A DNA stretch of 64,000 bases from Minisyncoccota bacterium (GTDB taxonomy: Bacteria > Patescibacteriota > Minisyncoccia > Phycocordibacterales > JACRKE01), in assembly GCA_041660505.1 (NCBI GenBank), contig JBAZWG010000001.1, forward strand, positions 541,776 to 605,775, given 5' to 3'. How positions within the stretch are numbered: the stretch's first letter is position 1; each line of letters opens with the position of its first letter. The notes under the pieces are model-generated. The model was not told the DNA's origin. It did no database searches and worked only from the letters and a program-made list of their open reading frames with translations. The translations under genes and the position numbers were made by a program. Shown piece by piece: positions 5,214-24,557 of this stretch.

Positions 5214-5633
5214 ATGACAAAAGTAGTAAAAACAATTAAATTGCAAATCCCGGCCGGTAAGGCCACCCCGACGCCTCCGGTCGGTCCAGCGCTCGGCCAA
5301 GCCGGTGTTAACATCGGCGAGTTCATCACCAAGTTCAACGCCGCCACGGCCAAAATGGCGGGGGATATCATCCCTGTTATTATCTCGGTCAAGGATGACC
5401 GTTCCTTTAGTTTCGAGCTCAAGACTCCGCCGGCATCAAACCTCCTCCTCAAGGCCGCCGGTGCCGAGAAAGGCTCCGGTACGCCGAACACAAAGAAAGT
5501 CGGCAAGATAACGAAAGCCCAGCTCAAAGAAATTGCTGAGAAGAAGATGCCAGACTTGAATGCAAAAGACTTGGAAGGCGCCATGAACATCATTGCCGGC
5601 ACCGCCCGCAACATGGGAATTGATATCGTATAA
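5214..5633 (+). CDS. rplK: 50S ribosomal protein L11
   Basis: 139 aa. Motif [27 protein letters not shown] is diagnostic of L11. Confidence 0.95.
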
Positions 5634-5677
5634 GGTTTCAAAGGTTCAACCTTATGCATCCAAAAGGTTGAACCTTA
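5632..5677. repeat. REPIN-like palindromic doublet, family A copy A2
   Basis: aaggttcaacctt (5641..5653), 10-nt loop, aaggttgaacctt (5664..5676). The two halves are reverse complements of each other. Confidence 0.75.
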
Positions 5678-5689
5678 AAAAACAAAATT

Positions 5690-6292
5690 ATGTTTCTTTC
5701 AGATCGAGATATTAAAGCCGCAGTGAAGTCTGGCGCTATTCGTATCGATGATTTCGATCCAGAGCGGCTCCAGCCGGTCTCCTACGATATTCTCCTTGGC
5801 AACAAGTTCATCACCACCGAGTCGCAGGACACACCTTTTATCGACCCGGTAAAAAAGATTTTCCCCAGTACGCGCGAGATTACGATTGAGGACAACGAGA
5901 GTTATGTGCTCCATCCTGGCGTGAGTATCCTCGGTACTTCATTCGATTACTTCGGCTCGAAGGAATATCTCATTCAGCTCTCGGGCAAGAGTTCGCTCGC
6001 GCGCATTGGGCTCATTGTCCACAACACCGCGGGCATCATCAACCCGGGCCATTTCTTGCATATTACGCTCGAGTTATGCAATTTGAATGTCGTGCCAATC
6101 GTTCTCCGCCCCAAGATGCATATCGCGCAGTTACTATTCTCGAAAATTTCCAATCCTGTCATTCATGACTACAGCAAGACCGGCCGATACTTCGAGAAGA
6201 ATTGGCAAGGCATCACCCACGCCAAGAACCGGCGCGTGACCGATAAAAAAGTTAATAAAAAGAAGCATGTCAAATTTTCAGATGAAGGTTAA
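5690..6292 (+). CDS. dcd: dCTP deaminase
   Basis: 200 aa. MFLSDRDIK... N-terminus and the SSLARIGLIVHNTAGIINPGH region match the Dcd/dUTPase-like trimeric fold. Overlaps dut by 26 bp. Confidence 0.75.
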   Translation: MFLSDRDIKAAVKSGAIRIDDFDPERLQPVSYDILLGNKFITTESQDTPFIDPVKKIFPSTREITIEDNESYVLHPGVSILGTSFDYFGSKEYLIQLSGKSSLARIGLIVHNTAGIINPGHFLHITLELCNLNVVPIVLRPKMHIAQLLFSKISNPVIHDYSKTGRYFEKNWQGITHAKNRRVTDKKVNKKKHVKFSDEG

Positions 6293-6698
6293 GAGGCTCA
6301 ATCCTAAGGCGATACTGCCGGATTATAAGCACGATGGGGATGCCGGTCTCAATCTATATTCGATCGTTCGGGCCAAACTCGAGCCCGGTGCGCGCGCAAC
6401 AGTCCCGACAGGTATCGCAACAGAAATACCGGCAGGACATGTGGGCCTGATTTGGGACAGAAGCGGTCTGTCGCACAAATCGGGGCTTAAGGTTATGGGC
6501 GGGGTGATTGATGCGGGATACCGCGGTGAAATCGGCGTAGGGCTGGTAAACACTTCTCATGAAGCTTATACAATCGAAGCGGGAGACAAGATAGCTCAGA
6601 TGCTTATTCAAGAAGTCGAGCACGTTCTTATTTCAGAAGTCGCAGAACTTTCCGACACGTCTCGCGGTTCAGCCGGCTTCGGCAGTACGGGGCGCTGA
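6267..6698 (+). CDS. dut: dUTP diphosphatase (dUTPase)
   Basis: 143 aa. dUTPase motifs GLIWDRSGL, GVIDAGYRGE, and the C-terminal SRGSAGFGSTG. Confidence 0.9.
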   Translation: MSNFQMKVKRLNPKAILPDYKHDGDAGLNLYSIVRAKLEPGARATVPTGIATEIPAGHVGLIWDRSGLSHKSGLKVMGGVIDAGYRGEIGVGLVNTSHEAYTIEAGDKIAQMLIQEVEHVLISEVAELSDTSRGSAGFGSTGR

Positions 6699-6722
6699 AG
6701 AAATAGTCCAGTGCAATTCAAT

Positions 6723-6760
6723 TATTCCAAAACTCTGCTATCGCGTGATTCTGGAATAGA
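6723..6760. repeat. 36-nt repeat copy a flanking the PaaX-like regulator gene
   Basis: ttattccaaaactctgctatcgcgtgattctggaata. A second copy lies at 7342..7380. Confidence 0.6.
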
Positions 6761-6778
6761 AAAGATAATTCAAGTTTT

Positions 6779-7339
6779 TTATTTCAAACCGAATTTTTCT
6801 TTGAGCTTATTGTCTGGTTGAATGCGGGATTCGAGCAGATAGACATATTCAGAAATTTCGTGGTAGTTCAGAACGAAGTTCACCTCTTCTTCGCAGGGGT
6901 AGGGGAATACAAAAACGCTTTTCTGGAATTCTTTGAAACCGAGTTTTTTGAGTTTGGTACGCAAGGCATCTCGTGCCGGTTTGAGCGGCTCGGGAATGTC
7001 GAAGAGAACCATGCGCCATTTTTTGTCCCACTTCTTTTCTTGATTCAAGGTTAGCGCGTTGTACATTCGTTTCAGGCGATAACTGGCACCATCGCGCGTC
7101 ATCGCCATTTTATATGAATCCTTACCCTTCACAACTTCGACGTAGCCGCGTAGTTTCAGTTTGTCTAATGTCGCAAACAGCACCTTGCGGTTCATTTCGA
7201 ACCAAACTTTGTCACAATGCTCATGAATTGCGCGTCGCCGAGTTTTCCCGCGTGTGAAAATAAGAACAGTCTGCGAGGCCAGAAGATCAAGAATCTGCGT
7301 CGCGAGGATTTCTCGTTTTGTCATATCGTAATAATACAC
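6779..7339 (-). CDS. PaaX-family-like transcriptional regulator (N-terminal wHTH, C-terminal PaaX_C/Cas2-like domain)
   Basis: 186 aa. C-terminal block WDKKWRMVLFDIPEPLKPARDALRTKLKKLGFKEFQKSVFVFPYP matches the PaaX C-terminal signature. Sits inside the thyA-tmk cluster. Confidence 0.5.
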   Translation of the reverse strand: MYYYDMTKREILATQILDLLASQTVLIFTRGKTRRRAIHEHCDKVWFEMNRKVLFATLDKLKLRGYVEVVKGKDSYKMAMTRDGASYRLKRMYNALTLNQEKKWDKKWRMVLFDIPEPLKPARDALRTKLKKLGFKEFQKSVFVFPYPCEEEVNFVLNYHEISEYVYLLESRIQPDNKLKEKFGLK

Positions 7340-7393: not shown

Positions 7394-8323
7394 TTATACT
7401 GCAATCGGGGCTTTGATCGGTGGGTGGGGGTCGTAGCCTATGACTTCGACATCTTCGAATTTGAAATCGAAGATGTCTTTGACGGCGGGATTAATTTTCA
7501 TCGTCGGGAGCTTGCGCGGTTCGCGGGAGAGTTGTTCTTCTACTTGGGCAAAATGATTTTTATAAATATGGACATCGCCAAAGGTGTGGATGAACTCGCC
7601 CGGCTGCAGTCCGGCCACTTGCGCCATCATCATGGTAAAGAGGGAATAGGACGCGACATTAAAGGGTACACCCAGAAAGACGTCGGCCGAGCGCTGGTAG
7701 AGCTGGCAAGAGAGTTTGCCGTTAATGACCATAAAATGAAAGAGCGTGTGACAAGGTGGTGGGGCAGAGTGGTGCGCCTTGACTAAGCTCTCGATCTCGC
7801 CGATGTTCCAGCCGGAGACAATGAGTCGGCGCGAAGTCGGGTCGTTCTTTATCAAATCCAAAACAAGTTTGACTTGATTGATGCTCCTGCCGTCCTTCGT
7901 CTCCCAGTTGACCCACTGCTTACCGTAGATTGGGCCAAGCTCGCCGTATTTCTTGGCAAACTCGTCATCATTCACTATTTTCTCAACGAACTCCGCCATA
8001 TGATTGGTCCAACTCTCTGAATAGCGCGGATATTTTTCTTCCAGATTATTTTTCTTCAAATAGTCGGCATAGGCCCATTCGTTCCAAATCTTCACGCCAT
8101 TCTTTGCGAGATACTGAATATTAGTGTCTCCCCGCAAGAACCAGAGAAGTTCGTAAATTATCGATTTTAAATAAACTTTCTTGGTCGTGAGCAGAGGGAA
8201 GCCGTCGGCCAAATTCACTCTATATTGATAACCGAAGAGGCTGCGTGTGCCGACGCCGGTGCGATCCGCCTTATCGGTACCATCATCGCGAATCTTCTTG
8301 AGCAAGTCTAAATATTGCCGCAT
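7394..8323 (-). CDS. thyA: Thymidylate synthase ThyA
   Basis: 309 aa. Active-site region [41 protein letters not shown]. Confidence 0.9.
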
Positions 8324-8331
8324 AAGATTTA

Positions 8332-8931
8332 TTATTTTGATAAGTTAATAACTTCTTTATGTATCTCTTCGACGCTTCGCTCGCCATCTATGAGATATAC
8401 ATTTGGGTACCACTCCGGCATCTTGGCGTATATCTCGCCGGCTTTGCGTAATTTCTCGGTTTTCTCGAAGAGTTCCAGCTCGCGCCCATTTTTTGTAATA
8501 CGTTGCAAACAGACTTCTGGTCGTGCGATAAAGATAAAAGTCAGATCAGGGATGGGGAATGGCTCGTTGATTTGTTTAAGCCATTCAACATCCAGATTAA
8601 GCGAACCGAAGGCGACGGTCGAAAATAAATAACGGTCAGAAACTACCGTTTTGCCGGCATCAAGCGCCGGAATAATAACTTGCTCTACGTGCCACTTGCG
8701 ATCTTTAACAAAGAGTTCTTGTAATTCTTTCGGCGTTAGAGATTTCTTGTGTTTCAACACATCGTCAATCTCATCAGAAAAAGGACTTTCGCCACGCGAT
8801 GTTGGCTCCTCTGTCTGCAGGACGTCGTGTCTGTGTTCGGTAAGATATTTAATAAAAAGTTCGATTTGGGCGCTCTTGCCGGAGCCGTCGAGACCCTCGA
8901 AGACGATAAATTTCCCTTTTCTTGCACTCAT
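8332..8931 (-). CDS. tmk: Thymidylate kinase
   Basis: 199 aa. P-loop [16 protein letters not shown] region present. Confidence 0.9.
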
Positions 8932-8954
8932 AATTTTGATTGTAACAGAAAGAT

Positions 8955-9479
8955 GTGATATCGTCTAAGCATATGATAGTCTCGCTCATCGTTGCAATGG
9001 ACAAGAACCGTGTTATCGGGCAGTCGGGGACTTTGCCCTGGAATATCCAGGCCGATATGAACTTCTTCAAGACTATCACGATGCATCACCCGGTCATCAT
9101 GGGGAGGAAGACCCACGAGTCCATCGGCCGAGCCTTGCCTCATCGCTTGAATATTATCGTAACGCGCCAAGCGGGCTATCAGCCTAAAGGGAAAGCGGGG
9201 GATTCTGTGATTGTGCCGAATTTGGAAGCCGCCTTCGATTGGGCGCTCAAGGTAGAGAAGCAGGAGATATTCGTCATCGGCGGGGCAGAAATTTTCGAAC
9301 AAGCAATGCCAGTCGCCGACAAAATTTATATCACAGAAATAGATTCAGAATTCAAAGGTGACACATTTTTTCCTGAGATTAGCTCGAAAGAATGGGAGCT
9401 AAAATCGTCATCAGCTCTAAATAACGAATCCACCGGCGGGCATACGCTCCACTTCAAGACTTACGAACGAAGAAAGTAA
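8955..9479 (+). CDS. folA: Dihydrofolate reductase
   Basis: 174 aa. Motifs IVAMDKNRVIGQSGTLPW and VIMGRKTHESIG, plus the GG motif VIGGAEIF. Confidence 0.85.
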   Translation: MISSKHMIVSLIVAMDKNRVIGQSGTLPWNIQADMNFFKTITMHHPVIMGRKTHESIGRALPHRLNIIVTRQAGYQPKGKAGDSVIVPNLEAAFDWALKVEKQEIFVIGGAEIFEQAMPVADKIYITEIDSEFKGDTFFPEISSKEWELKSSSALNNESTGGHTLHFKTYERRK

Positions 9480-9487
9480 GTTAAAAC

Positions 9488-9520
9488 AATCACAGACTGC
9501 CGGATGACAGTCTGTGATGA
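9488..9520. terminator. Bidirectional hairpin between folA (+) and the GC-rich minus-strand gene pair
   Basis: atcacagactg / ccggatga / cagtctgtgat gives a perfect 11-bp stem. On the minus strand it is followed by a T-rich run (ttgttttaa). Confidence 0.45.
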
Positions 9521-9545
9521 TGCTGGGGGGGGCGAATCAGCTACA

Positions 9546-9884
9546 TTACAGCCTGCGAAGGGCGCGGTTGAGGCTTTTCATTGCCTCGACGAGCTCTTTC
9601 GAGAGGCGGTACTCTTTTGCCGCCTGGTACTGCTTGATCGGGACATCCAGCGCCGTTGCGATGTCCTCGACCGTAGTCAAACCTTTCGCCTTGTGGGCGT
9701 ACCGAGTTGCTTCGAAGGCGATGTCCTCGCCGGCGACGCGGAGTTTGACGAGCTCGTCCCGGGCTGCGAGCATCTGCTTGAAGGTGCCGAGGTCGTTGTT
9801 CTTTGTCCCCGGCCCAGCAGCGCCGCTTTCGCAGGAGTACACGAAGTCCTTGACGGACTCCTTGAGAATCTTTGTGTCGAACAA
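9546..9884 (-). CDS. Hypothetical protein, paralogue 2 of a tandem pair in a high-GC island
   Basis: 112 aa. Shares the block ..LRVAGEDIAFEATRYAHKAKGL..EDIATAL..QYQAA..ELVEAMKSLNRAL with the upstream ORF. GC content is clearly higher than in surrounding genes. Confidence 0.5.
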   Translation of the reverse strand: MFDTKILKESVKDFVYSCESGAAGPGTKNNDLGTFKQMLAARDELVKLRVAGEDIAFEATRYAHKAKGLTTVEDIATALDVPIKQYQAAKEYRLSKELVEAMKSLNRALRRL

Positions 9885-14374: not shown

Positions 14375-16288
14375 ATGACTCCGGATGAAGAAAAGAGCAA
14401 ACTTGAGCAAGTCGAGCAGACGCTTAATAAAAAAGACGACCGTTACTTCTTTCGCCGGCGCAAAGGTTTGGCCGCAGTGAAGCCCGTGGCGCATGAAGAC
14501 TGGCATGATGCATTACCCGAACAGGACATTCCTATGAAAAAACACACATTCGCAACACGCTTTTTTCTCGTTTCCCTTATCTTTTTTGCGAGTGCTATCG
14601 CGTTCGCATTTTATAAGATGCAAGGCGGTGGCAATCTGGTTTCTAATCAAAATATCGATATTACCGTAACCGGGCCTTTGAGTATAAAGGGCGGAGATGA
14701 AGTTCAGCTCCAGCTTCAAATCGTTAATAATAATAACGTACCGCTCGAAGTTTCTGAGCTCGTTATCGAATATCCTGCGGGTACGCGACTCTCTGATAAC
14801 CAGACGAAGGAGACAACAAGAGTGACGAAAAACCTCGGCGACATCGCGCCGCACCAGGTCATTAACGACACTTTCCGCGCGATACTCTTCGGAGAAGAGA
14901 AAAGCGATAAAGAAATAAAGATACAGCTAGAGTATCATCTGCCTGGATCCGGAGCTGTTTATACAAGGGATGTGTCTTATCATATTGTCATCGATTCCGC
15001 GCCGGTCACTCTTCGCATCTCGAGTCCAGATGCGGTGAACTCTGGCGACGAAACGACACTTAACGTCACAATAGATTCCAATACCGGCAAGCTAATACCT
15101 AATCTCAAACTCAAGATGAATTATCCACCCGGCTTTATTTTTACCAAAGCAACACCCGCGCCAATTTCCGGAACGACGAACGTTTGGACGCTCGGTGATG
15201 TCTCGGCAAGCTCTTCGCGCGATATCGTCATAACTGGCACGATGACCGGGCAAGAGAACGACACCAAGGCATTCCAAGCTATTGCCGGCATCTCCACAGG
15301 AGCGAACATAAAGAACGTTGATCTCGTTTATAATTCTTTGTTCCAAAAGATCGCTATCAAGAAGCCATTCCTTGGGCTCGCTATCGCGCTCAATGATTCT
15401 GTCGAAGATCCTTCCGTCGTAGAGGGCGAGACGCCAATGCAAGCGACTTTTTCTTGGGCCAACAACACGGATATTACCTTGACAGATTGCGCGCTCACGG
15501 TGCAGACCGGCGGCGCCATCGATAGGCGCAGTGTCAGAGTAGATACTGCCGGCTCATACTTTTCTTCCAAAAATACTTTAGTCTGGACCGCGAACGGTTT
15601 GGATAAATTCCAAGTGGTCAACCCGGGAGATTCCGGCACGCAAAATGTTACATTCGCTTCGTCGCCACTTCTCACGGATGGAGTGCCACTTAGACTGCCG
15701 ATGATAACCTTGCAAGGGACGTTCGTCTGTACGAAAGTCGGCGACAGCACAACGAAGGATTATCAACTTACAACGCAGGTCTTCCGAACAATAAAGATAA
15801 ATTCGAACGCACAATTCAGTGCCTCGGCGCGTTATTACACCGGCCCGTTTACCAACACCGGCCCATTCCCGCCTAAAGGTGACAGTGATACCACCTTCAC
15901 GATAATCTGGTCTCTTACCAATACGTCGAACGATATAGATAATGCGACGGTGACCGCCACGTTGCCTGCATACGCGAGCTGGGTTGATAAAACAGCGGGA
16001 GACGGAACGATGGCATACGATCAAGGCAGTAAGCAAGTGACATGGACGATCGGCACGCTTAAAGCGGGTGTCGGATACGAGAGCCCGGTAAAACAAACAT
16101 CGTTCCAGGTGAGTGTAAAACCGTCCGTAAATGCCGCCGGCTCGTTCGTTGATATTATCGGGCCGTCGACATTCGCCGGCATCGATGATTTTACAAAAGC
16201 GGAAAGGAAGAGTATAAAGGAGACTATGACCTCGGAACTTAAGTTCGATCCGGGCTTACCCAGAGACATGAGTGGCAAGGTGCAATAG
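14375..16288 (+). CDS. Hypothetical membrane-anchored protein with repeated beta-rich extracellular domains (DUF11-like)
   Basis: 637 aa. Charged N-terminal segment, one TM helix (FFLVSLIFFASAIAFAF), then Thr/Ser/Asn-rich repeated domains. Confidence 0.55.
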   Translation: MTPDEEKSKLEQVEQTLNKKDDRYFFRRRKGLAAVKPVAHEDWHDALPEQDIPMKKHTFATRFFLVSLIFFASAIAFAFYKMQGGGNLVSNQNIDITVTGPLSIKGGDEVQLQLQIVNNNNVPLEVSELVIEYPAGTRLSDNQTKETTRVTKNLGDIAPHQVINDTFRAILFGEEKSDKEIKIQLEYHLPGSGAVYTRDVSYHIVIDSAPVTLRISSPDAVNSGDETTLNVTIDSNTGKLIPNLKLKMNYPPGFIFTKATPAPISGTTNVWTLGDVSASSSRDIVITGTMTGQENDTKAFQAIAGISTGANIKNVDLVYNSLFQKIAIKKPFLGLAIALNDSVEDPSVVEGETPMQATFSWANNTDITLTDCALTVQTGGAIDRRSVRVDTAGSYFSSKNTLVWTANGLDKFQVVNPGDSGTQNVTFASSPLLTDGVPLRLPMITLQGTFVCTKVGDSTTKDYQLTTQVFRTIKINSNAQFSASARYYTGPFTNTGPFPPKGDSDTTFTIIWSLTNTSNDIDNATVTATLPAYASWVDKTAGDGTMAYDQGSKQVTWTIGTLKAGVGYESPVKQTSFQVSVKPSVNAAGSFVDIIGPSTFAGIDDFTKAERKSIKETMTSELKFDPGLPRDMSGKVQ

Positions 16289-16314: not shown

Positions 16315-17724
16315 TTGACGATTATGACTGATACAAATATGGATGATATTATTTCGTTCGCGAAGCGCAAAGGTTTTGTCTATCCCGGCTCGGAAATTTA
16401 CGGCGGAGCAGCCGGCTTGTATGACTTCGGGCCGTACGGCGTCGAACTTTTAAATAATCTAAAGGCGTCATGGTGGAAGGAGAATGTGCAAAAGAAAGAG
16501 AACTACTTCGGCCTCGACTCGGCGATGTTCAAAGACCCTCGTGTCTGGGAGGCGTCTGGCCACGTCGGCGGGTTTTCCGACCCTTTGACCGAATGCAAGA
16601 AGTGCAACACGCGTCTGCGCGTAGACAAAGAGCTTGCCAAAATCGGTGTGTCTGCCGATGAGAAAATGTCCGAGGCCGAATTGAACGCGCTTTTTGACGA
16701 ACATAAGAAAAAAATCAAGTGTCCCAAGTGTGGCGGACAAGACTTCTCGCCAGTGCGCGCCTTCAATCTGCTCGTGAAGTCGAACTTGGGGGATTTTACC
16801 AATACCGGCGAGCATCCGGTGTATCTTCCAGGCGAAGCCTGCCAGGGTATTTATTTGAATTACAAAAATATTCTAGATACAGTGCGCGCCAAAGTACCCT
16901 TTGGCATCGCGCAAATCGGCAAAGCATTCCGCAACGAGATATCGCCGCGCAACTTCCTCTTCCGCACGCGCGAGTTCGAGCAGGCCGACACGCAGTATTT
17001 CATCCGACCAAACGAGAATAAGGCAGATTATGAAAGAATCAAACAAGAACGCTGGAGTTGGTACTTGAGTTTAGGTATTCCGGCAGAACAGCTGCGCTGG
17101 AAGCAGCACGAACGCCTGGTCTTCTATGCCAAAGATGCTTGGGATATTGAATACAACTTCCCATCATACGGCTTCGACGAAGTCGAGGGTATTCATGACC
17201 GTACCGATTATGACTTGACCCAGCATATGAAGTTCTCCGGCGTTGACCTCTCGTATCTCGATCCAGAAACGAACGAGAAATATATTCCGTGGATACTGGA
17301 GACGTCGATGGGGATGGGCCGGCTCTTTCTCGCTGTCCTTTCAGAAGCTTATACAGAAGATGAACTTGGGGGCGAGAAGCGCACATTGCTTAAACTCAAG
17401 CCGAGTTTGGCGCCTATTAAAGTTGCAGTCTTTCCTTTGCTTCGCAACAAGCCGGAACTGGTCGCCAAAGCGCGCGAAGTCTTTATGATGCTTAAGCAAG
17501 AATTCCGCACCGAGTGGGACGACAACGGCAATATCGGCAAGCGTTATCGCCGGCAAGATGAGATCGGCACGCCGTGGTGCGTCACAGTAGACTTCGATAC
17601 GCTCGGCGAAACCCCCGAGAATAAAGACACCGTAACAGTTAGAGACCGCGACACGGGCAAACAAGAAAGAATGAAAATCAGCGAACTTGCGTCGCATATA
17701 CAAAAGAGTATACTTTCGACATGA
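16315..17724 (+). CDS. glyQS: Glycyl-tRNA synthetase (alpha2 dimeric class II type)
   Basis: 469 aa. N-terminus FAKRKGFVYPGSEIYGGAAGLYDFGPYG, class II motifs, C-terminal anticodon-binding domain. Confidence 0.9.
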   Translation: MTIMTDTNMDDIISFAKRKGFVYPGSEIYGGAAGLYDFGPYGVELLNNLKASWWKENVQKKENYFGLDSAMFKDPRVWEASGHVGGFSDPLTECKKCNTRLRVDKELAKIGVSADEKMSEAELNALFDEHKKKIKCPKCGGQDFSPVRAFNLLVKSNLGDFTNTGEHPVYLPGEACQGIYLNYKNILDTVRAKVPFGIAQIGKAFRNEISPRNFLFRTREFEQADTQYFIRPNENKADYERIKQERWSWYLSLGIPAEQLRWKQHERLVFYAKDAWDIEYNFPSYGFDEVEGIHDRTDYDLTQHMKFSGVDLSYLDPETNEKYIPWILETSMGMGRLFLAVLSEAYTEDELGGEKRTLLKLKPSLAPIKVAVFPLLRNKPELVAKAREVFMMLKQEFRTEWDDNGNIGKRYRRQDEIGTPWCVTVDFDTLGETPENKDTVTVRDRDTGKQERMKISELASHIQKSILST

Positions 17725-17999
17725 AAAAAACTTCAAAAAATAAACAGCCGGTTACGATCGACATATTCGAGAAAAGCATGGCGAGCATTGCTAAGTCGTT
17801 TGTGCGTGTGGACGAACGATTTGAAAAGCACGATCAGATGTTCGAGTCCATTCTCGGAGAAATCAAGAATTTGCATGAAGACAATAAATACATCAGAAAC
17901 ACTTTGAATGATCTTGTGCGACAGGGTGCAAAAGATGATCGCAAAATGGACGATATGCTTGTTCGAATCGAACGACTCGAGGCGAAAGTCTTGGTCTAA
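17721..17999 (+). CDS. Hypothetical small coiled-coil protein
   Basis: 92 aa, charged and helical. Overlaps the glyQS stop by 4 bp (ATGA). Confidence 0.4.
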   Translation: MKKTSKNKQPVTIDIFEKSMASIAKSFVRVDERFEKHDQMFESILGEIKNLHEDNKYIRNTLNDLVRQGAKDDRKMDDMLVRIERLEAKVLV

Positions 18000-18004
18000 A
18001 CGGA

Positions 18005-19717
18005 ATGGAAACTAAGTCCTGCCAGAATTGCAAAGAAAATTTCGTCATCGAACCGGAAGATTTCGTTTTTTACGAAAAAATCAAAGTCCCCCCGCCGACT
18101 TTCTGTCCGGAGTGCCGTATGATCAGGCGATTCCTCTGGAGGAACGAGAGAACACTATATAAGCGTAAGTGTGATTTGTGTAGTAAAGACATAATTGCTA
18201 TGTATTCGGCAGATTCCGATTTTACAGTGTATTGTTCCGACTGCTGGTACTCCGACCAATGGGACCCAATGGAATACGGCAGCGATTATGATTTTTCCGT
18301 GCCATTTTTTTCTCAATTCGGGCTGTTGGTAAAGAAAGTTCCTCGGATAGCACTTGAGGGATATCAAAATTTAAATTCTCCATTCACTAATTACACATGG
18401 TTTTCGAAAGATGTTTATTTGTCTGCTTCCACGTTGTATTCGGAGAATGTTTTTAACTCCCAGGCAACATCTAACGGAGCAGATATATTCGATTGTGATA
18501 ATACTTCGAGATCTAATACTTGTCTTGATGTTGTGACGGCCGATAAATGTTCTCGCTGTTATTCTTGCATACAAGTTCAAGAAAGTCTGGATTCTCGTTT
18601 CCTTTACGATTGCAAAAATTGTACGAGTTGTATGTTAAGTCACAACCTGAGACACAAATCATACGTCCTAAGAAATAAACAGCTTACGAAAGAAGAGTAT
18701 GAAAAAGAAAAGCCTGATATAGGGAGTTTTAAAATTCAGTGCGAATGCGAGGCAGAATTTGCCCACCTGCGAAGCGGAGCGGTAACCAGATTCGCCTCTG
18801 TGACAAAGTCAGAAAATACCACCGGCGACTACATTACTAATTCCAAGAATATTTATCGTTCATTCGGTGTTGATAACGCCGAGAATATACGCTATGGATC
18901 CCGTGCCACATATATTAAAGATAGTATGGATGTCCACGGCGTCGGAAGCAGCGATGGGGCAGTTGAGTTATTGTATGAATTCATTAACGGCGGATACAAA
19001 GATTCACGAATGTTTTTTTCAGCAAATTCGTATGAAGGAATGCTGAACGCGTACTACTGTGATTATTGCAGAGGGTCAGAAAACGTATTCGGTTGTGTCG
19101 GTTTAAAAAAGAAGCAATATTGCATTCTTAATAAACAGTATTTAAAAGAGGAATATTTAGAGTTGGTGTCGAAAATAATCGAACACATGAACAAGATGCC
19201 ATACGTAGATGCTAGCGGCATCGAATATAAATACGGAGAATTTTTTCCATCGGAAATTGCACCATTTACCTATAACGAAAGTTTAGCACAAGAATATTTT
19301 CCGATAAGGCAAGATGTTGCCGAGACGGCTGGATATCGCTGGCGCAAACAAGAAGAAAAAAGTTATAGGATTACCATTTTGTCCAGTGCTCTGCCAGACC
19401 ACATCAACGACACCCCTGATTCTATCTTAAAAGAGGTTATAGGATGTGAACATCGTGCAGAATGTTCTGAACAGTGTACTGGTGCGTATAAAATAACACC
19501 GGCAGAATTGAATTTTCATCGCGCCAACGGAGTTGCCCTGTCTCGTTTATGTATGAACTGTCGGCATTCCGCTCAATTTAAAAAGAGAACACCAATGCAG
19601 TTATGGCATAGACATTGTATGAAAAAGGGTTGCCCAAACGAATTCGAAACCTCCTACGCCCCAGATCGCCCCGAGATCATCTATTGCGAGTCTTGCTATC
19701 AGCAGGAAGTCGTGTAG
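18005..19717 (+). CDS. Cysteine-rich multi-zinc-ribbon protein, paralogue A
   Basis: 570 aa, about 40 Cys mostly as CxxC pairs. N-terminus CQNCKENFVIEPEDFVFYEKIKVPPPTFCPECR. C-terminal tail YAPDRPEIIYCESCYQQEVV is shared with the 20365..22062 product. Confidence 0.7.
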   Translation: METKSCQNCKENFVIEPEDFVFYEKIKVPPPTFCPECRMIRRFLWRNERTLYKRKCDLCSKDIIAMYSADSDFTVYCSDCWYSDQWDPMEYGSDYDFSVPFFSQFGLLVKKVPRIALEGYQNLNSPFTNYTWFSKDVYLSASTLYSENVFNSQATSNGADIFDCDNTSRSNTCLDVVTADKCSRCYSCIQVQESLDSRFLYDCKNCTSCMLSHNLRHKSYVLRNKQLTKEEYEKEKPDIGSFKIQCECEAEFAHLRSGAVTRFASVTKSENTTGDYITNSKNIYRSFGVDNAENIRYGSRATYIKDSMDVHGVGSSDGAVELLYEFINGGYKDSRMFFSANSYEGMLNAYYCDYCRGSENVFGCVGLKKKQYCILNKQYLKEEYLELVSKIIEHMNKMPYVDASGIEYKYGEFFPSEIAPFTYNESLAQEYFPIRQDVAETAGYRWRKQEEKSYRITILSSALPDHINDTPDSILKEVIGCEHRAECSEQCTGAYKITPAELNFHRANGVALSRLCMNCRHSAQFKKRTPMQLWHRHCMKKGCPNEFETSYAPDRPEIIYCESCYQQEVV

Positions 19718-19758
19718 TCTACGTTGTTGGTTGACGCCTTTCGTGATATGCTACGCAC

Positions 19759-20052
19759 ATGAGCGATATCGCATTATTACAGCAGAATAAAGATATTTTC
19801 GAGAAATACGGCACGGCCTATGCCGGGCTTTTTGGGTCGCGTGCGCGAGGGAATGCTCATGAAGACAGTGATTACGATATTGTCGTCAAACTAAAAAAAC
19901 CGATCGGGCTTTTTACATTTACCGGCTTTCAGCTCGAATTGGAAGATCGTCTACAAAAGAAAGTTGATCTCATGACTGAGGCTTCGATAACTCCTAGGAT
20001 TAAGTTACAAGCATTAAATGACCTCAAGATTTTCTATGGACAGCGAGAATAA
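19759..20052 (+). CDS. mntA: MntA-type nucleotidyltransferase antitoxin
   Basis: 97 aa. Minimal nucleotidyltransferase signature GLFGSRARGNAHEDSDYDIVV. Confidence 0.8.
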   Translation: MSDIALLQQNKDIFEKYGTAYAGLFGSRARGNAHEDSDYDIVVKLKKPIGLFTFTGFQLELEDRLQKKVDLMTEASITPRIKLQALNDLKIFYGQRE

Positions 20053-20368
20053 GTTGTATCTCGGGCACATTCTTGATGCGATTACCAAGCTCGAGAAATA
20101 TGCGGGATTGACTTCGCGGACTGATTTGGAGACAAACGATCTTGTGTATGACGCCATAGTTCGCGAAATAGAAATTTTAGGTGAGGCAACGAAACACCTG
20201 ACGGACGACTTCCGTTGTCTGGAACAGGGAATTCCCTGGAATCTGATTATTGCAACCAGAAACAAGCTTATACACGAGTATTCCGAAGTTGATCTTGATT
20301 CTATCTGGAAAACTATCCAAGAAGATTTACCTAAGCTCAAAGCGGTGGTCAATAAGTATTTGAATTGA
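20018..20368 (+). CDS. hepT: HepT-type HEPN toxin (DUF86)
   Basis: 116 aa. HEPN Rx4-6H motif RNKLIHEY. Overlaps mntA as usual for this toxin-antitoxin pair. The alternative in-frame ATG at 20036 may be the true start. Confidence 0.8.
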   Translation: MTSRFSMDSENKLYLGHILDAITKLEKYAGLTSRTDLETNDLVYDAIVREIEILGEATKHLTDDFRCLEQGIPWNLIIATRNKLIHEYSEVDLDSIWKTIQEDLPKLKAVVNKYLN

Positions 20369-22062
20369 TGGAAACCAGAACTTGCCAAAACTGTAAGCAA
20401 AATTTCGTCATCGAACCGGAAGATTTTGAGTTTTACGAAAAAATAAAAGTCCCTCCGCCGACCTTCTGTCCGGAATGCAGAAATATCCAGCGTCTTGCGA
20501 CACGCAATATGAAGTCTTTGTATCGGCGCGCCTGCGACAAATGCGGAGAGAATGTTGTTTCTCGATTTTCTTCGTCCAACCGCGCAAGAATGTTTTGTCA
20601 TAAATGCTGGTGGGCAGAAGACTGGGACGGCATTTCATTCGGTAAGGATTACGACTTTTCGCGCCCATTTTTCGAACAGTTCAATGAATTACTTTTTAAC
20701 GTTCCTCATGTTTCTATTCTTAATTCAAACATGGTTGAGAGCGATTATTCCAACATGGAAACAGATTGCAAAAAATGCTATCTGACTTTCGGCGGCCACT
20801 ATAACGAAAATTGCGCCTTTACTGTCTACAGTTTGTATGGGAAGGAAGTTTACGATTCGTACTGGTCCCTTCACTGTGAACAATGTTTAGGCAACACGAG
20901 TGTTAATCATTGTTACCGTACGTTTTTTTCGGAACAATGCGGAAATTGTATCGACACCTTTGTCTCACGCGACTGCCGCGGGTGCACAAATATCATAGGC
21001 TGTGCAGGTTTGCGCAATAAGCAATATTGCATTTACAACAGACAATTCAGCAAAGACGACTATCTGAAAGAAAAGTCCAGGCTCAATTTCGGATCCCATG
21101 CAGAGCTCGAGAGTATCATCAGTAAGTCGCATGAAGTTTGGCTGAAGACGCCTCATCAATATGCAGCAATGATTAAGACAGTAAACTGCTCCGGCAACGA
21201 TATTTTTAACTCTAAAAATGTCATTAACGGATGGAACGTAGAAGAGAGCGAGAATTGCAAGAACGCATATATAGCAGCCTCGATAAAAGATTGCTATGAC
21301 GAAACCTCCGTAGGCAATGACGAGCTTGGCTACATGAATGCGAACGGCGGGGGATTATATAACTGTAAAGCAACGCTATACTCCTTTTCCAGCGACCCGA
21401 TGAATCGAAAAAGCGGATTTAATTGCGAATACTCCTATTCGCTTGTTAATTGCAATGACTGCTTCGGTTGTGCCGGTTTGCGCGGCAAGCGATACTGTAT
21501 TCTTAATAAACAGTACACAGAGGCCGAATACAAAAATTTATTGCCGAAAGTAATCGAACATATGAGGAAGGCACCTTTTGTATCTTCTGCCAACCGATAC
21601 ATTTATTCGTATGGCGATTTTTTCCCGGCAGAGCACTCGCTTTTTGCATATAACGAATCAGCCGCCCAAGATTTTTACCCGACACAAGGCGATAAGGCGC
21701 TAATGGCCGGATTTAATTGGCGAGAAGAACCGCCGACAGAATACAAGTTTACCGACTATATAATTCCGGATGATATTAGGGATGTTAAAGACGATATTTT
21801 AAATGCCGTGTTAAAGTGCGAGAAAAGTGGCAAGGCATATCGAATCATAAAGCAAGAACTCGAATTTTACAGAAGCATTGGACTGCCAATACCACGAATC
21901 GCCCCGCTCGAAAGAATAAATCAAAGAATTAATAATTTACTGCCGTTCAAACTTTGGGAGAGAACCTGCGGTAAATGCTCCAAACCCATTCAGACACCGT
22001 ACGCTCCCGACCGGCCGGAGATCGTCTATTGCGAGTCTTGCTACCAGCAGGAAGTAGTGTAA
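20365..22062 (+). CDS. Cysteine-rich multi-zinc-ribbon protein, paralogue B
   Basis: 565 aa, homologous over its full length to the 18005..19717 product. The first ~110 nt and last ~40 nt are ~85-90% identical at the DNA level. The interior is conserved only at the level of Cys spacing. Confidence 0.7.
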   Translation: MMETRTCQNCKQNFVIEPEDFEFYEKIKVPPPTFCPECRNIQRLATRNMKSLYRRACDKCGENVVSRFSSSNRARMFCHKCWWAEDWDGISFGKDYDFSRPFFEQFNELLFNVPHVSILNSNMVESDYSNMETDCKKCYLTFGGHYNENCAFTVYSLYGKEVYDSYWSLHCEQCLGNTSVNHCYRTFFSEQCGNCIDTFVSRDCRGCTNIIGCAGLRNKQYCIYNRQFSKDDYLKEKSRLNFGSHAELESIISKSHEVWLKTPHQYAAMIKTVNCSGNDIFNSKNVINGWNVEESENCKNAYIAASIKDCYDETSVGNDELGYMNANGGGLYNCKATLYSFSSDPMNRKSGFNCEYSYSLVNCNDCFGCAGLRGKRYCILNKQYTEAEYKNLLPKVIEHMRKAPFVSSANRYIYSYGDFFPAEHSLFAYNESAAQDFYPTQGDKALMAGFNWREEPPTEYKFTDYIIPDDIRDVKDDILNAVLKCEKSGKAYRIIKQELEFYRSIGLPIPRIAPLERINQRINNLLPFKLWERTCGKCSKPIQTPYAPDRPEIVYCESCYQQEVV

Positions 22063-22073
22063 TATAGGGGGTA

Positions 22074-23129
22074 ATGCATGATACCAAATTCAGCATCACC
22101 AATGACAGCATTGTCAGAGTAATTTTCTGGGTAGTTTTGGCTGTTCTGATATTCCTTCTGCGCGACCTTATTATCGCCATTGTCGCTTCTGTTGTTATCG
22201 CTTCGGCTATCGAGCCGGCCATCCGCTGGCTGGGTAATTATCGCATGCCGCGGATACCTTCTGTCATTAGTATTTATCTCGGTACGGCAATATTATTGCT
22301 TTCTATTTTCTATTTCTTCGTTCCGCCACTATTCAACGACATGATGGTCGTAAGCCGTCAACTGCCACAGATGATCGCCAAGGCGGAGATATTCGCACCT
22401 ATTACAGACAACTTCCCGCAGATTGTGGACGGGTTAAGACAGCAGTTCTCGCTGGTTGACGCATTCGTTCCTGGCGGAGCGGTCTCGACTGTCGGTGGCA
22501 ACGTAGTGCACACGGCCGGTGTGCTCGTCGGCAGTCTCTTTATGCTTATCTTGATACTCGTACTCTCATTCTACCTGGCAGTGCAGGAGCATGGCATCGA
22601 CAATTTCATCAGACTTGTCGCCTCCGATCAATACGAAGAATATTTGATAGATCTCTGGAAGCGTTCACGTAAGAAAATTGGCTACTGGATGCAGGGGCAA
22701 GTTCTCCTCGGTTTACTTATCGGAGTTTTCGTCTACCTCGGCCTCGCGGTCTTCGGTATTAAGTACGCTCTGCTCCTCGCGGTCTTGGCGGCAATATTCG
22801 AGATCATTCCGGTCTTCGGGCCGATACTCTCGGCCGTGCCGGGTGTGCTCCTGGGCTTCTCGCAAGGGTACGGCATGGGACTTTTTATCCTCGGCTTTTA
22901 TATAATCATCCAACAGTTTGAGAATCATCTTATTTACCCATTAGTTGTACGAAAAATTGTCGGCATTCCGCCCATTCTGGTAATCTTGTCGTTAATCGTC
23001 GGCGGGCAACTCTTCGGCTTTCTCGGCATTCTTATCGCCGTGCCCATTGCGACGATACTCATGGAGGTGCTGGGCGATCACGAACGCCGCAAGCTCGCCG
23101 GTAGGCAAATAGCACAAAATAAACAGTAA
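22074..23129 (+). CDS. AI-2E family transporter (UPF0118/PerM-like)
   Basis: 351 aa, 7-8 TM helices, conserved C-terminal region typical of the AI-2E family. Confidence 0.75.
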   Translation: MHDTKFSITNDSIVRVIFWVVLAVLIFLLRDLIIAIVASVVIASAIEPAIRWLGNYRMPRIPSVISIYLGTAILLLSIFYFFVPPLFNDMMVVSRQLPQMIAKAEIFAPITDNFPQIVDGLRQQFSLVDAFVPGGAVSTVGGNVVHTAGVLVGSLFMLILILVLSFYLAVQEHGIDNFIRLVASDQYEEYLIDLWKRSRKKIGYWMQGQVLLGLLIGVFVYLGLAVFGIKYALLLAVLAAIFEIIPVFGPILSAVPGVLLGFSQGYGMGLFILGFYIIIQQFENHLIYPLVVRKIVGIPPILVILSLIVGGQLFGFLGILIAVPIATILMEVLGDHERRKLAGRQIAQNKQ

Positions 23130-23135
23130 ACTAGC

Positions 23136-24557
23136 ATGCAAAAAATATACATAACAACAACTCTACCGTATGTAAATGCATCGCCGCATATCGGCTTCGC
23201 GATGGAAATTATCCGTGCCGATATTCTTGCTCGTCATTATCGCAAGGCCGGATACGAAGTTTTTTTTAATTTCGGTACAGATGAACACGGAAAGAAAATA
23301 TACGAGAAGGCCGTAGAGGCAGGGAAAGATCCGAAAGCATATTGTGATGAATTCGCCGCGAAATTCGACGCCCTTAAATCGGTCCTGAATGTGACTTATA
23401 ATAATTTCATCCGGACGACCGATGAACACCACATAATGGCCGCCGGGGAATTTTGGAAGATTTGTCATGCCAAAGGCGATATCTACAAGAAAAAGTATCA
23501 AGTCAAATATTGCGTAGGGTGCGAGCTGGAGAAGCAAGATTCGGACTTGGTTAATGGGCAATGTCCGGAGCACCCGAACCGCAAACTGGAACTCTTGGAC
23601 GAAGAAAACTACTTCTTTAGATTTTCCAAATACGAAAAGCAGCTGCTCGATTTATACGAGAAGAATCCAGAACTCGTCTCTCCTCCATGGAGGATGAACG
23701 AGATAAAGGCATTCGTCGAGAGAGGATTGCAAGACTTCTCAATTTCACGATTAAAGGCAAAGATGCCATGGGGGATAGATGTACCGGGCGACAATGACCA
23801 TGTTATGTATGTCTGGTTCGACGCTCTGGTGAACTATATTTCAGCTATCGGCTGGCCTGATGATATGAATAGATTCGGTGCTTGGTGGCCGGCCGTTCAG
23901 GTCTGCGGGAAGGATAACTTGCGCCAGCAGACGGCGATGTGGCAGGCGATGCTTATGTCGGCCGGACTGCCTCACTCGAAGAAGATCTACGTTAACGGCT
24001 TTATAATCTCCGGCGGACAGAAGATGAGCAAGTCGCTTGGAAACGGTATCAACCCTATTGAAATAGTAGCCGAATATGGTACAGACGCCCTCCGCTTCTT
24101 TCTGGCCAGGGAAGTTACACCCTTCGAAGATTCCGATGTTACATCCGAGAGAATCAAAGAATCGTATAACGCATATCTTGCCAACGGTATTGGCAATCTG
24201 GCTTCCCGCATCCTAAAAATGAGTGAGAGCTATCTTGCCGGCGAAAAGATCGAGGTTATTATCTCAGATAATCCCGAGTTTGATAGTTTTATAGAAAACT
24301 ATCAGTTCGATTCTGCTATGAAATTTGTTATGGACGAAGTAACCAAACTTAACGAAAAGATTCAGACGACACAACCTTTCTCTCTCTATAAGACCGATCC
24401 GGAAAAGGCGAAAGTCATTATTCGGGAACTTATGAAAGGACTCGCCGGAGTGGCCAGGCTCCTTGAGTCGGTGATGCCAGCAACTGCCGAGAAAATTTCA
24501 GAGTGCATCAAAGCCAACAAAAAACCGGAGACACCGTTATTCCTAAGAAAAGAGTAA
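23136..24557 (+). CDS. metG: Methionyl-tRNA synthetase (short form, no C-terminal tRNA-binding domain)
   Basis: 473 aa. PYVNASPHIGFA sits at the HIGH position. Zn knuckle CVGCELEK...CPEHPN. KMSKS motif GQKMSKSLGN. Confidence 0.9.
   Translation: MQKIYITTTLPYVNASPHIGFAMEIIRADILARHYRKAGYEVFFNFGTDEHGKKIYEKAVEAGKDPKAYCDEFAAKFDALKSVLNVTYNNFIRTTDEHHIMAAGEFWKICHAKGDIYKKKYQVKYCVGCELEKQDSDLVNGQCPEHPNRKLELLDEENYFFRFSKYEKQLLDLYEKNPELVSPPWRMNEIKAFVERGLQDFSISRLKAKMPWGIDVPGDNDHVMYVWFDALVNYISAIGWPDDMNRFGAWWPAVQVCGKDNLRQQTAMWQAMLMSAGLPHSKKIYVNGFIISGGQKMSKSLGNGINPIEIVAEYGTDALRFFLAREVTPFEDSDVTSERIKESYNAYLANGIGNLASRILKMSESYLAGEKIEVIISDNPEFDSFIENYQFDSAMKFVMDEVTKLNEKIQTTQPFSLYKTDPEKAKVIIRELMKGLAGVARLLESVMPATAEKISECIKANKKPETPLFLRKE

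Follow-up and report, generated by a model that had tools for sequence, protein, structure and literature searches.

Two paralogous cysteine-rich genes flanking a MntA/HepT toxin-antitoxin pair point to a large, apparently undescribed protein family of Patescibacteria

The stretch of DNA considered here, referred to as the window, comprises 64,000 nucleotides (nt) from a Minisyncoccota bacterium (contig JBAZWG010000001.1 of assembly GCA_041660505.1, positions 541,776 to 605,775). Between the genes for a class II glycyl-tRNA synthetase (glyS) and an AI-2E permease it contains five tightly packed genes on the same strand, which are an open reading frame (ORF) of 92 amino acids (aa), a gene for a cysteine-rich protein (gene A), the toxin-antitoxin (TA) genes mntA and hepT, and a second gene for a cysteine-rich protein (gene B). 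Genes A and B would probably represent two ancient lineages, class I and class II, of a soluble protein family of ~570 aa that is restricted to Patescibacteria, with a mobile TA pair lodged between them and a function linked to ATPases. The features bearing on this reading are the following (positions are those of the window).

18005..19717, + strand: gene A, class I family member, 570 aa, 31 Cys (from the ORF, homologues and an AlphaFold2 (AF2) model)
18005..18268, + strand: N-terminal double zinc-finger module of A, aa 1-88, Cys 6/9/34/37 and 56/59/77/80
18350..19100, + strand: predicted variable, Cys-containing β-solenoid core of A, ~aa 115-365, no Pfam family
19442..19714, + strand: C-terminal zinc module of A, aa 480-570, with an extra CxHx3Cx3C site and CxxCR (class I) and a Cx4C-x17-CxxC finger
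19759..20052, + strand: mntA, minimal nucleotidyltransferase antitoxin, 97 aa (PF01909, PF18765)
20018..20368, + strand: hepT, HEPN RNase toxin, 116 aa (110 aa from the NCBI start; PF01934, RNKLIHEY)
20368..22062, + strand: gene B, class II family member, 564 aa from ATG, 34 Cys (from the ORF, orthologues and class signature)
18005..18129 and 20368..20492, + strand: 5' direct repeat copies, 125 nt, 82% identical
19655..19721 and 22000..22066, + strand: 3' direct repeat copies, 67 nt, 85% identical
19112..19195 and its partner 21487..21570, + strand: third conserved block, 84 nt, 74% identical, encoding KxYCILNKQY..EY....K.IEHM

Gene B is recorded publicly as WC764_03035; from an alternative start its ORF would span 20365..22062 and encode 565 aa. 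Gene A appears in the NCBI record as WC764_03020, which holds just the last 361 aa, starting at Met210. Since the 570-aa ORF is intact and is homologous to its relatives over the full length, WC764_03020 would be a truncated call.

The products of A and B can be aligned from end to end by BLASTP (39% identity, 581 columns, E 2e-137), which agrees with an earlier note on this DNA, made from the sequence alone, that had described two homologous cysteine-rich proteins of ~570 aa. The number of cysteines had been put too high in that note, at about 40 each; 31 are counted in A and 34 in B, with 11-12 CxxC motifs in either protein. The higher identity of the termini at the DNA level is also real, since the values for the first 125 nt and the last 67 nt contrast with a nucleotide identity of ~46% in the interior, where the amino acid identity is 33%. 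According to blastn, the 5' ends are 84.7% identical over 111 nt; the final 39 nt of the two genes are ~90% identical, and an identical 28-mer is found at 18036-18063 and 20399-20426, a repeat of a kind that was reproduced in none of 100 shuffles. The interior is not, as had been supposed, kept only in its Cys spacing, because the third conserved block, located at aa ~360-440, reaches 53-73% amino acid identity (15-column windows, alignment columns 375-404). A tblastn search of the window for more paralogues returned none beyond A and B. A second assembly, a contig from Logan SRR18595301, corresponds to positions 18071-23961 of the window and is 100% identical to it over 5,891 nt; the contig breaks at 18071, just past the 5' repeat that both genes have in common, and the repeat is possibly the cause of the break.

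The Cys columns of the N-terminal module are invariant across an alignment of 19 N-terminal modules. In the alignment of the full family, C6, C9, C34, C37, and C56 are invariant, while C59, C77, and C80 are conserved in at least 90% of the sequences. The N-terminal module (~88 aa) is homologous to the C-terminal one (~92 aa; HHalign probability 98.9%, E 3e-17), and each contains two four-ligand sites, the second with CxxC-x17-CxxC spacing. In B, this spacing is realized at the C-terminus by two CxxC pairs 17 residues apart (C534/C537 and C555/C558); the corresponding finger of A, formed by C538/C543 and C561/C564, is a Cx4C variant. The core of A is built from an internal duplication, each half of which ends in Cx2C...L[RK]xKxYxxxNKQxxKEEY. 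An AF2 model derived from 51 sequences is, taken as a whole, of good confidence (pLDDT 79.8, pTM 0.80), the variable core being modeled less well (51-78). The ~400 central residues match no family of Pfam, NCBIfam, PADLOC, or PHROGs, and scans of the complete A and B proteins against these collections yielded weak zinc-finger matches alone, so that the impression of the earlier note that no enzymatic motif is present is borne out at the level of families. A transmembrane segment, a hydrophobic segment, or a signal peptide is found in neither A nor B. On the basis of these results, A and B are read as soluble, non-enzymatic proteins in which a zinc module, a solenoid, and a second zinc module would follow one another.

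The closest likeness is with the treble-clef fingers zf_Tbcl and zf_Tbcl_2 (PF13451, PF23477; TIGR04272), which have the same Cys spacing as the terminal fingers of the family. Unlike these, the family fuses two fingers into a module of ~88 aa and carries such a module at both ends of a 570-aa protein, and A and B score under the curated cut-offs. B remains below both of them, with 21.8 bits versus a gathering threshold (GA) of 27 for PF23477 and 21.5 bits versus a cut-off of 36 for TIGR04272; no match to either is found in A. Among the 51 members, 26 match PF13451 and 14 match PF23477 at E<0.05, some of these matches being sub-threshold. LIM domains are two consecutive zinc fingers for protein-protein docking and, like the family module, have two sequential four-ligand sites in ~60-80 aa, but their ligand pattern and spacing are different and there is no sign of common descent. 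A search of the PDB with the family profile retrieved LIM chains alone, at a weak E of 0.03-0.7; the C-terminal module matches CRP1/CRP2 LIM domains at E 0.03-0.5, with 0.03 for 1ctl. An identity as LIM domain was rejected, PF00412 being matched in 2 of the 51 members at an insignificant E of at least 0.013. Concerning the core, left-handed β-helix acyltransferases, γ-carbonic anhydrases, the heads of trimeric autotransporters, and insect and plant antifreeze proteins serve as β-solenoid comparators; assignment as a left-handed β-helix (hexapeptide) transferase was discarded, as neither the hexapeptide repeat signature nor a strong fold match was found. With regard to metal binding, small proteins of Methanosarcina mazei with the CxxC-x17-CxxC arrangement have been shown by inductively coupled plasma mass spectrometry (ICP-MS) to bind zinc (PMC12704099).

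More than 7,390 homologues of A and B are found among the matches listed, all of them "hypothetical proteins" of Patescibacteria, the hosts being Paceibacterota, Nomura-, Giovannoni-, Lipton-, Brenner-, Staskawicz-, Wolfe-, Jorgensen-, and Kuenenbacteria, as well as others. A profile search of 1.84 billion representatives gave 5,443 clusters at 50% identity, and more than 587 stretches with the family are present in species genomes of the GTDB. No published description of the family was found in the literature on cysteine-rich and zinc-ribbon proteins of Patescibacteria, on TIGR04272, or on PF23477. As judged from these searches, the family is large, unnamed, and apparently restricted to Patescibacteria, also referred to as the candidate phyla radiation (CPR). 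JAMPXW010000002.1, one of the loci retrieved, bears four members of the family as well as a VirD4-like gene. Its label, "Burkholderiales bacterium", probably reflects the mis-binning of a contig from Patescibacteria.

Within the family, A has full-length orthologues in other genomes that reach 57% identity, while those of B in other CPR genomes are 57-67% identical to it. The class II protein B is devoid of the CxHx3Cx3C and CPxCR sites of class I. The former site is absent from all of the 120 best relatives of B and the latter from 119 of them, whereas 99 of 119 relatives of A have kept both. The possession of own orthologues at 57-67% identity together with the class-specific loss of zinc sites indicates that A and B are old lineages and not variants of a cassette, contrary to the cassette-like arrangement proposed earlier. 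When 173 family genes were grouped at ~48% identity, 54 groups resulted, mostly with one member per locus.

The conserved ends had been taken as a mark of exchange between A and B. This pattern is, however, found throughout the family, the consensus of which is nearly invariant in CQNCKxxFxIEPDDFxFYEKIKVPPPTFCPECR at one end and in NEFETSYAPDRPEIVYCExCYQxEV at the other; these are exactly the segments that had been flagged in the earlier note. Codons 2-45 of A (132 nt) have a nucleotide identity of 76% to B and of up to 75-77% (median 67%) to genes of unrelated genomes, and the 3' end is likewise similar in identity to genes of unrelated genomes. Since the ends are the most constrained parts of every member, a picture of conserved termini and diverged interior would emerge without any exchange between A and B. 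From these comparisons, most of the conservation of the ends would be due to purifying selection acting on the zinc modules.

The alternative, that gene conversion between A and B by means of short tracts keeps the ends alike and lets the interiors swap like cassettes, is a tentative one, although it draws on several observations. At identical residues, identical codons are used in 35 of 55 cases (64%) at the ends versus 73 of 163 (45%) in the interior, with 0.42 expected by chance (Fisher p 0.019). The 28-nt run shared by A and B exceeds the longest run of either with a foreign gene, which is 25 nt in 306 cross-genome comparisons; such runs, with 28 nt as the minimum, are seen in 15% of same-locus pairs versus 1.3% of cross-genome pairs matched for GC. 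Among 154 pairs, A-B ranks 1-2 for terminal nucleotide identity and 139 for the interior. Set against this are the small margins (76% versus up to 77% for unrelated genomes), the 6.5% of GC-matched cross-genome pairs that equal A and B in silent-site identity, and a family-wide terminal excess in same-locus pairs of just +0.014 versus -0.013, the p value of which is 0.013 when calculated by pairs and 0.08 by loci. Furthermore, the class II signature of B is retained from residue 38 on, and the C-terminal residues of B do not depart from the range seen among its own orthologues; an A-like C-terminus of B at the amino acid level was ruled out on 25 B-type orthologues. A and B are also full-length lineages conserved across genomes and not silent cassettes, and their products are cytoplasmic. 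The second assembly, in which chimeric alleles might have been seen as suggested in the note, could be compared over its 5,891 nt but is identical there, showing no variation and adding no evidence from a population. Hence, the excess of silent-site identity at the ends of A and B is borderline (p ~0.01-0.07).

For the family at large, recombination between copies is real, so that the earlier proposal holds in spirit, while for A and B themselves the evidence is borderline. In a minority of same-locus pairs, identical tracts of 44-56 nt are shared at the ends. At locus L041, two tandem genes (5214-6911 and 7992-9719) that are 62% identical overall have an identical tract of 408 nt ending near aa 509 (A numbering), with three shorter identical tracts located nearer to the 3' end. 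This pair is a clear case of partial gene conversion or chimeric duplication.

A different kind of rearrangement becomes apparent from L087, a syntenic locus of a related genome, where the order of genes is recO, a large upstream protein, glyS, a PIN-domain gene, a family gene, MntA, HepT, a family gene, and HicB/HicA. In comparison with the window, the amino acid identity is 81% for glyS, 82% for MntA, and 85% for HepT; the two family genes are merely 38-40% identical to A and B, both belong to class I, and one is of another lineage, having a 54%-identical match at locus L032. From the conserved TA pair in combination with different family lineages it follows that, after the divergence of the two genomes, either other family genes took the place of the original ones or a larger array lost different members in each. 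This locus is the best support for recombination, though it concerns the turnover of whole genes and not exchange between A and B. In either locus it is the two paralogues residing there that are most alike at one end, which is the 5' end in the window and the 3' end in L087. Between positions 5695 and 10470 of L087, family genes are interleaved with three TA-type units, i.e., PIN, MntA/HepT, and HicB-like plus HicA.

Recombining multigene families with conserved ends and variable cores are known from pilE/pilS and vls. The family shares with them tandem copies, conserved ends, a diverged middle, occasional sharing of tracts, and positional turnover. In contrast to these systems, its copies are complete, start-codon-bearing, and cytoplasmic and form old orthologous lineages, with no silent cassettes and no expression site. 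Silent, incomplete donors were not found, A, B, and 173 relatives being complete ORFs with start codons; nor is there a surface or secreted product, since a hydrophobic segment or a signal-like N-terminus is lacking. Very little is left in favor of a programmed cassette system.

The TA pair is ordinary in most respects. MntA is recognized by PF01909 (E 9.1e-13, 48.9 bits versus a GA of 21) and PF18765 (E 1.8e-13) and has the motif GSRARG...DSDYD, read in the translation as GSRARGNAHEDSDYD and fitting GSx(n)DxD; HepT is recognized by PF01934 (E 4.8e-24, 84.8 bits versus a GA of 23.5) and contains RNKLIHEY, i.e., Rx4HxY. The identification of a MntA/HepT pair in the earlier note is thus confirmed by Pfam thresholds as well as motifs. 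With 48.9 bits for NF047752 and 34.2 bits for NF047751, both below the NCBIfam equivalog cut-off of 60, the pair would be a divergent member of the MntA/HepT group and not an equivalog. As in type VII systems, in which the RNase toxin is neutralized through AMPylation by its antitoxin, mntA lies upstream of hepT on the same strand, with an overlap of 35 nt. Unlike a typical MntA/HepT pair, this predicted pair is placed between two family genes and abuts B translationally, the hepT stop overlapping the ATG of B by 1 nt. MntA also matches the PADLOC candidate system PDC-S09.

MntA/HepT is absent from 84 other family loci. Relatives of HepT with 85% identity occupy the same kind of junction between family genes in loci L087-L089, while among those with 69-72% identity one lies beside a non-family gene (L091) and another is flanked by a 26-nt direct repeat (L092). 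That the pair could mark an integration event, as had been suggested, is supported by this distribution, and MntA/HepT is a small mobile module. The repeat at L092 (positions 46-71 and 758-783, 96% identical) surrounds a 72%-identical MntA/HepT pair and resembles the T-arm and acceptor 3' end of a tRNA, which suggests site-specific insertion; ARAGORN called no complete tRNA on this short contig. As the TA pair would be lost in any deletion that joins the repeated gene ends, it could incidentally penalize such deletions and stabilize the array. Other TA types (PIN, HicA, PemK, ParE) are present among the small ORFs in or beside arrays. At locus L082 (6517-6979), an overlapping pair of ORFs of 76 aa and 81 aa located between family copies is type II TA-like in appearance, without a Pfam match.

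Arrays are common in the family. At least two copies within 8 kb are carried by 44 of the 76 loci with at least one full-length copy, the largest array having eight copies in 15 kb (L005). In two assemblies, a B-type gene (60% identical to B) is placed alone between rplB (L2) and rpsS (S19) of the S10 operon (L085, GCA_021734995.1, 8001-9734; L086, 2590-4323). In a genome of Nomurabacteria (GCA_026396065.1; L084, 1-17734), six family genes together with two genes for soluble VirD4/TraG-like ATPases lie between dnaK and dnaJ, one of the ATPases having a zf_Tbcl_2 finger as well as an extended proline-rich tail. In other loci, GrpE, DnaJ, and Hsp70 are repeatedly found next to the family.

The commonest neighbors are soluble VirD4/TraG/HerA-like ATPases (top tallies TrwB_AAD_bind, DUF87, T4SS-DNA_transf, and zf_Tbcl_2). 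Such an ATPase is encoded within 8 kb in 29 of 86 family loci, often directly upstream of a family member; of the 173 family genes, 36 have one within 900 nt. The finger of a neighboring ATPase (PF23477, E 5e-13) has the same CxxC-x17-CxxC spacing. Recurrent proximity to TrwB_AAD_bind/TraG-D_C/DUF87 ATPases recalls the VirD4/TraG coupling proteins; unlike these, the ATPases adjacent to the family have no N-terminal membrane anchor. Their maximum Kyte-Doolittle mean over 19 residues is 1.0-1.13, and the identification as a membrane-anchored type IV coupling protein was dismissed for want of a transmembrane segment. In Patescibacteria, ~2 orphan VirD4-like genes are reported per genome, rarely near virB4 (148 of 5,713) and possibly exapted (PMC12102498). 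From ~2 such genes per genome, an association of ~3-5% would be expected by chance.

On this basis, the following scenario is proposed for the two ancient lineages and their TA pair. An internal duplication would have made the Cys-containing β-solenoid core, which would be followed by a well-conserved linker, with the two homologous zinc modules at either end of the protein. The family would grow by tandem duplication, and members would be lost, replaced, or reshuffled by recombination, with the conserved ends as the sole homology available. MntA/HepT would have landed in the junction of two family genes in the ancestor of a small clade and would stand outside the function of the family. The family proteins would act as non-enzymatic binders, their zinc modules providing constant docking surfaces and the solenoid carrying a lineage-specific specificity, and their partners would most likely be the adjacent soluble VirD4/TraG/HerA-like ATPases with the same finger. 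The best guess, as far as gene order and domain content allow, is that family proteins are adaptors or cargo of those ATPases. Of all this, the domain anatomy, the constraint on the ends throughout the family, the age of the paralogous lineages, the arrays, the mobile TA insert, and the proximity of finger-bearing ATPases are observed, whereas docking by the zinc modules, specificity of the solenoid, and partnership with the ATPases are deduced.

Several points weigh against this scenario. The adaptor or cargo role is deduced only from gene neighborhood and the shared finger; two thirds of the loci have no ATPase within 8 kb, and tblastn detected no VirD4-like gene in the window. The chance level of ~3-5% is a rough estimate of our own, made for related genomes that are not independent of each other. 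Binding of zinc rather than of an Fe-S cluster is assumed for the family proteins. The silent-site identity at the ends of A and B is somewhat higher than in the interior and in most cross-genome pairs, which implies that purifying selection alone may not explain everything, and L087 is compatible with replacement as well as with differential loss from an ancestral array of larger size.

A bolder version, rather unlikely, would see the family and the finger-bearing soluble VirD4/HerA-like ATPases as an undescribed machine specific to Patescibacteria, in which a hexamer docks a set of paralogues particular to each genome through the shared finger and the ends serve as recombination handles, by which members could be swapped among lineages from one locus or genome to another. 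If true, it would explain why as much as ~14 kb of a genome smaller than 1 Mb is devoted to the family, even inside ribosomal and chaperone operons.

Other functions fit the data less well. According to one proposal, the family would be effector cargo of a type IV secretion system (T4SS), the ends of which are recognized by VirD4-like coupling proteins and which is delivered to the host, with the paralogues corresponding to host targets. The direct adjacency to VirD4/TraG-like genes with the same finger would suit such a role, as would arrays of divergent paralogues with conserved ends, which resemble effector repertoires. It is nevertheless improbable, because the adjacent ATPases are not anchored in the membrane, no ATPase is present in the window, the lineages are old and conserved and not fast-evolving, and tightly folded multi-zinc proteins are poor secretion substrates. 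T4SSs are widespread in Patescibacteria and thought to be repurposed, but the VirD4-like genes are, as mentioned, seldom close to virB4, and epibiotic growth of Ca. S. epibionticum does not require the homologue (PMC12102498).

Alternatively, the locus could be an anti-phage or conflict island, with the zinc-finger solenoids acting as sensors together with HerA/FtsK-like ATPases and TA pairs. HerA-type ATPases partner with defence effectors, TA types (MntA/HepT, PIN, HicAB, PemK, ParE) recur in or beside the arrays, and the match of MntA to PDC-S09 points in the same direction. Third-position GC is lower in A (0.41), mntA (0.42), hepT (0.48), and B (0.48) than in the housekeeping genes on either side (0.52-0.60), which means that the dip in total GC is not merely an amino acid effect. 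Such a role has little probability, however, as A and B have no PADLOC match and no effector domain, and as the family is found in dnaK-dnaJ and ribosomal operons in stable orthologous lineages, unlike patchy defence genes; any enrichment in TA types over the genome background is presumptive. That the paralogues are subunits of a hetero-oligomer or filament, in the manner of bactofilins or chaperonin paralogues, with the zinc modules as head-to-tail contacts, would agree with the many old lineages each kept once per locus, the homology of the two modules, the predicted β-solenoid core, and the position of genes in highly expressed housekeeping operons, but is hardly to be expected, given that copies vary from one to at least eight per locus and that lineage sets differ between related genomes.

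The surroundings of the five genes are made up as follows.

16315..17724: class II glycyl-tRNA synthetase gene (glyS), upstream flank of the five-gene same-strand block
17721..17999, + strand: small coiled-coil ORF, 92 aa, between glyS and gene A
22074..: AI-2E permease gene, downstream flank of gene B, followed by metG (23136..)

A scan of 16-23.5 kb for promoters and terminators performed no better than on shuffled sequence, and no tRNA genes are present in the window. The 92-aa coiled-coil ORF has a 37%-identical homologue in an unrelated locus (L048, 9816-10112), where a family gene lies immediately upstream of it; in L087, the position of the ORF is taken by the PIN-domain gene. The 637-aa protein encoded upstream of glyS (window 14375-16288; L087 2142-4106) is 52% identical between the two genomes, in comparison with 81% for glyS, and therefore evolves fast; it recurs beside glyS and family genes in L003 and L080.

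The observation that gave rise to this analysis is real, its interpretation by way of conserved ends is mostly explained by constraint, and behind the pattern stands an undescribed and heavily expanded family of the CPR. For the annotation of the locus, the gain is that an ordinary mobile TA pair is recognized and that gene A is found to be truncated in the public record. The genomes of Patescibacteria are among the smallest of cellular life, and proteins of unassigned role underlie a large part of the biology of these bacteria. In such genomes the family stands out by its size and cost, with thousands of members and up to eight tandem copies per locus, by its placement within operons in which interruptions are very rare (rplB-rpsS, dnaK-dnaJ), and by its linkage to the "orphan" VirD4-like ATPases, the role of which has been left open in the literature. 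It is, therefore, a strong candidate for a lineage-defining function, and its link to the ATPases turns the role of the exapted coupling proteins into a testable question.

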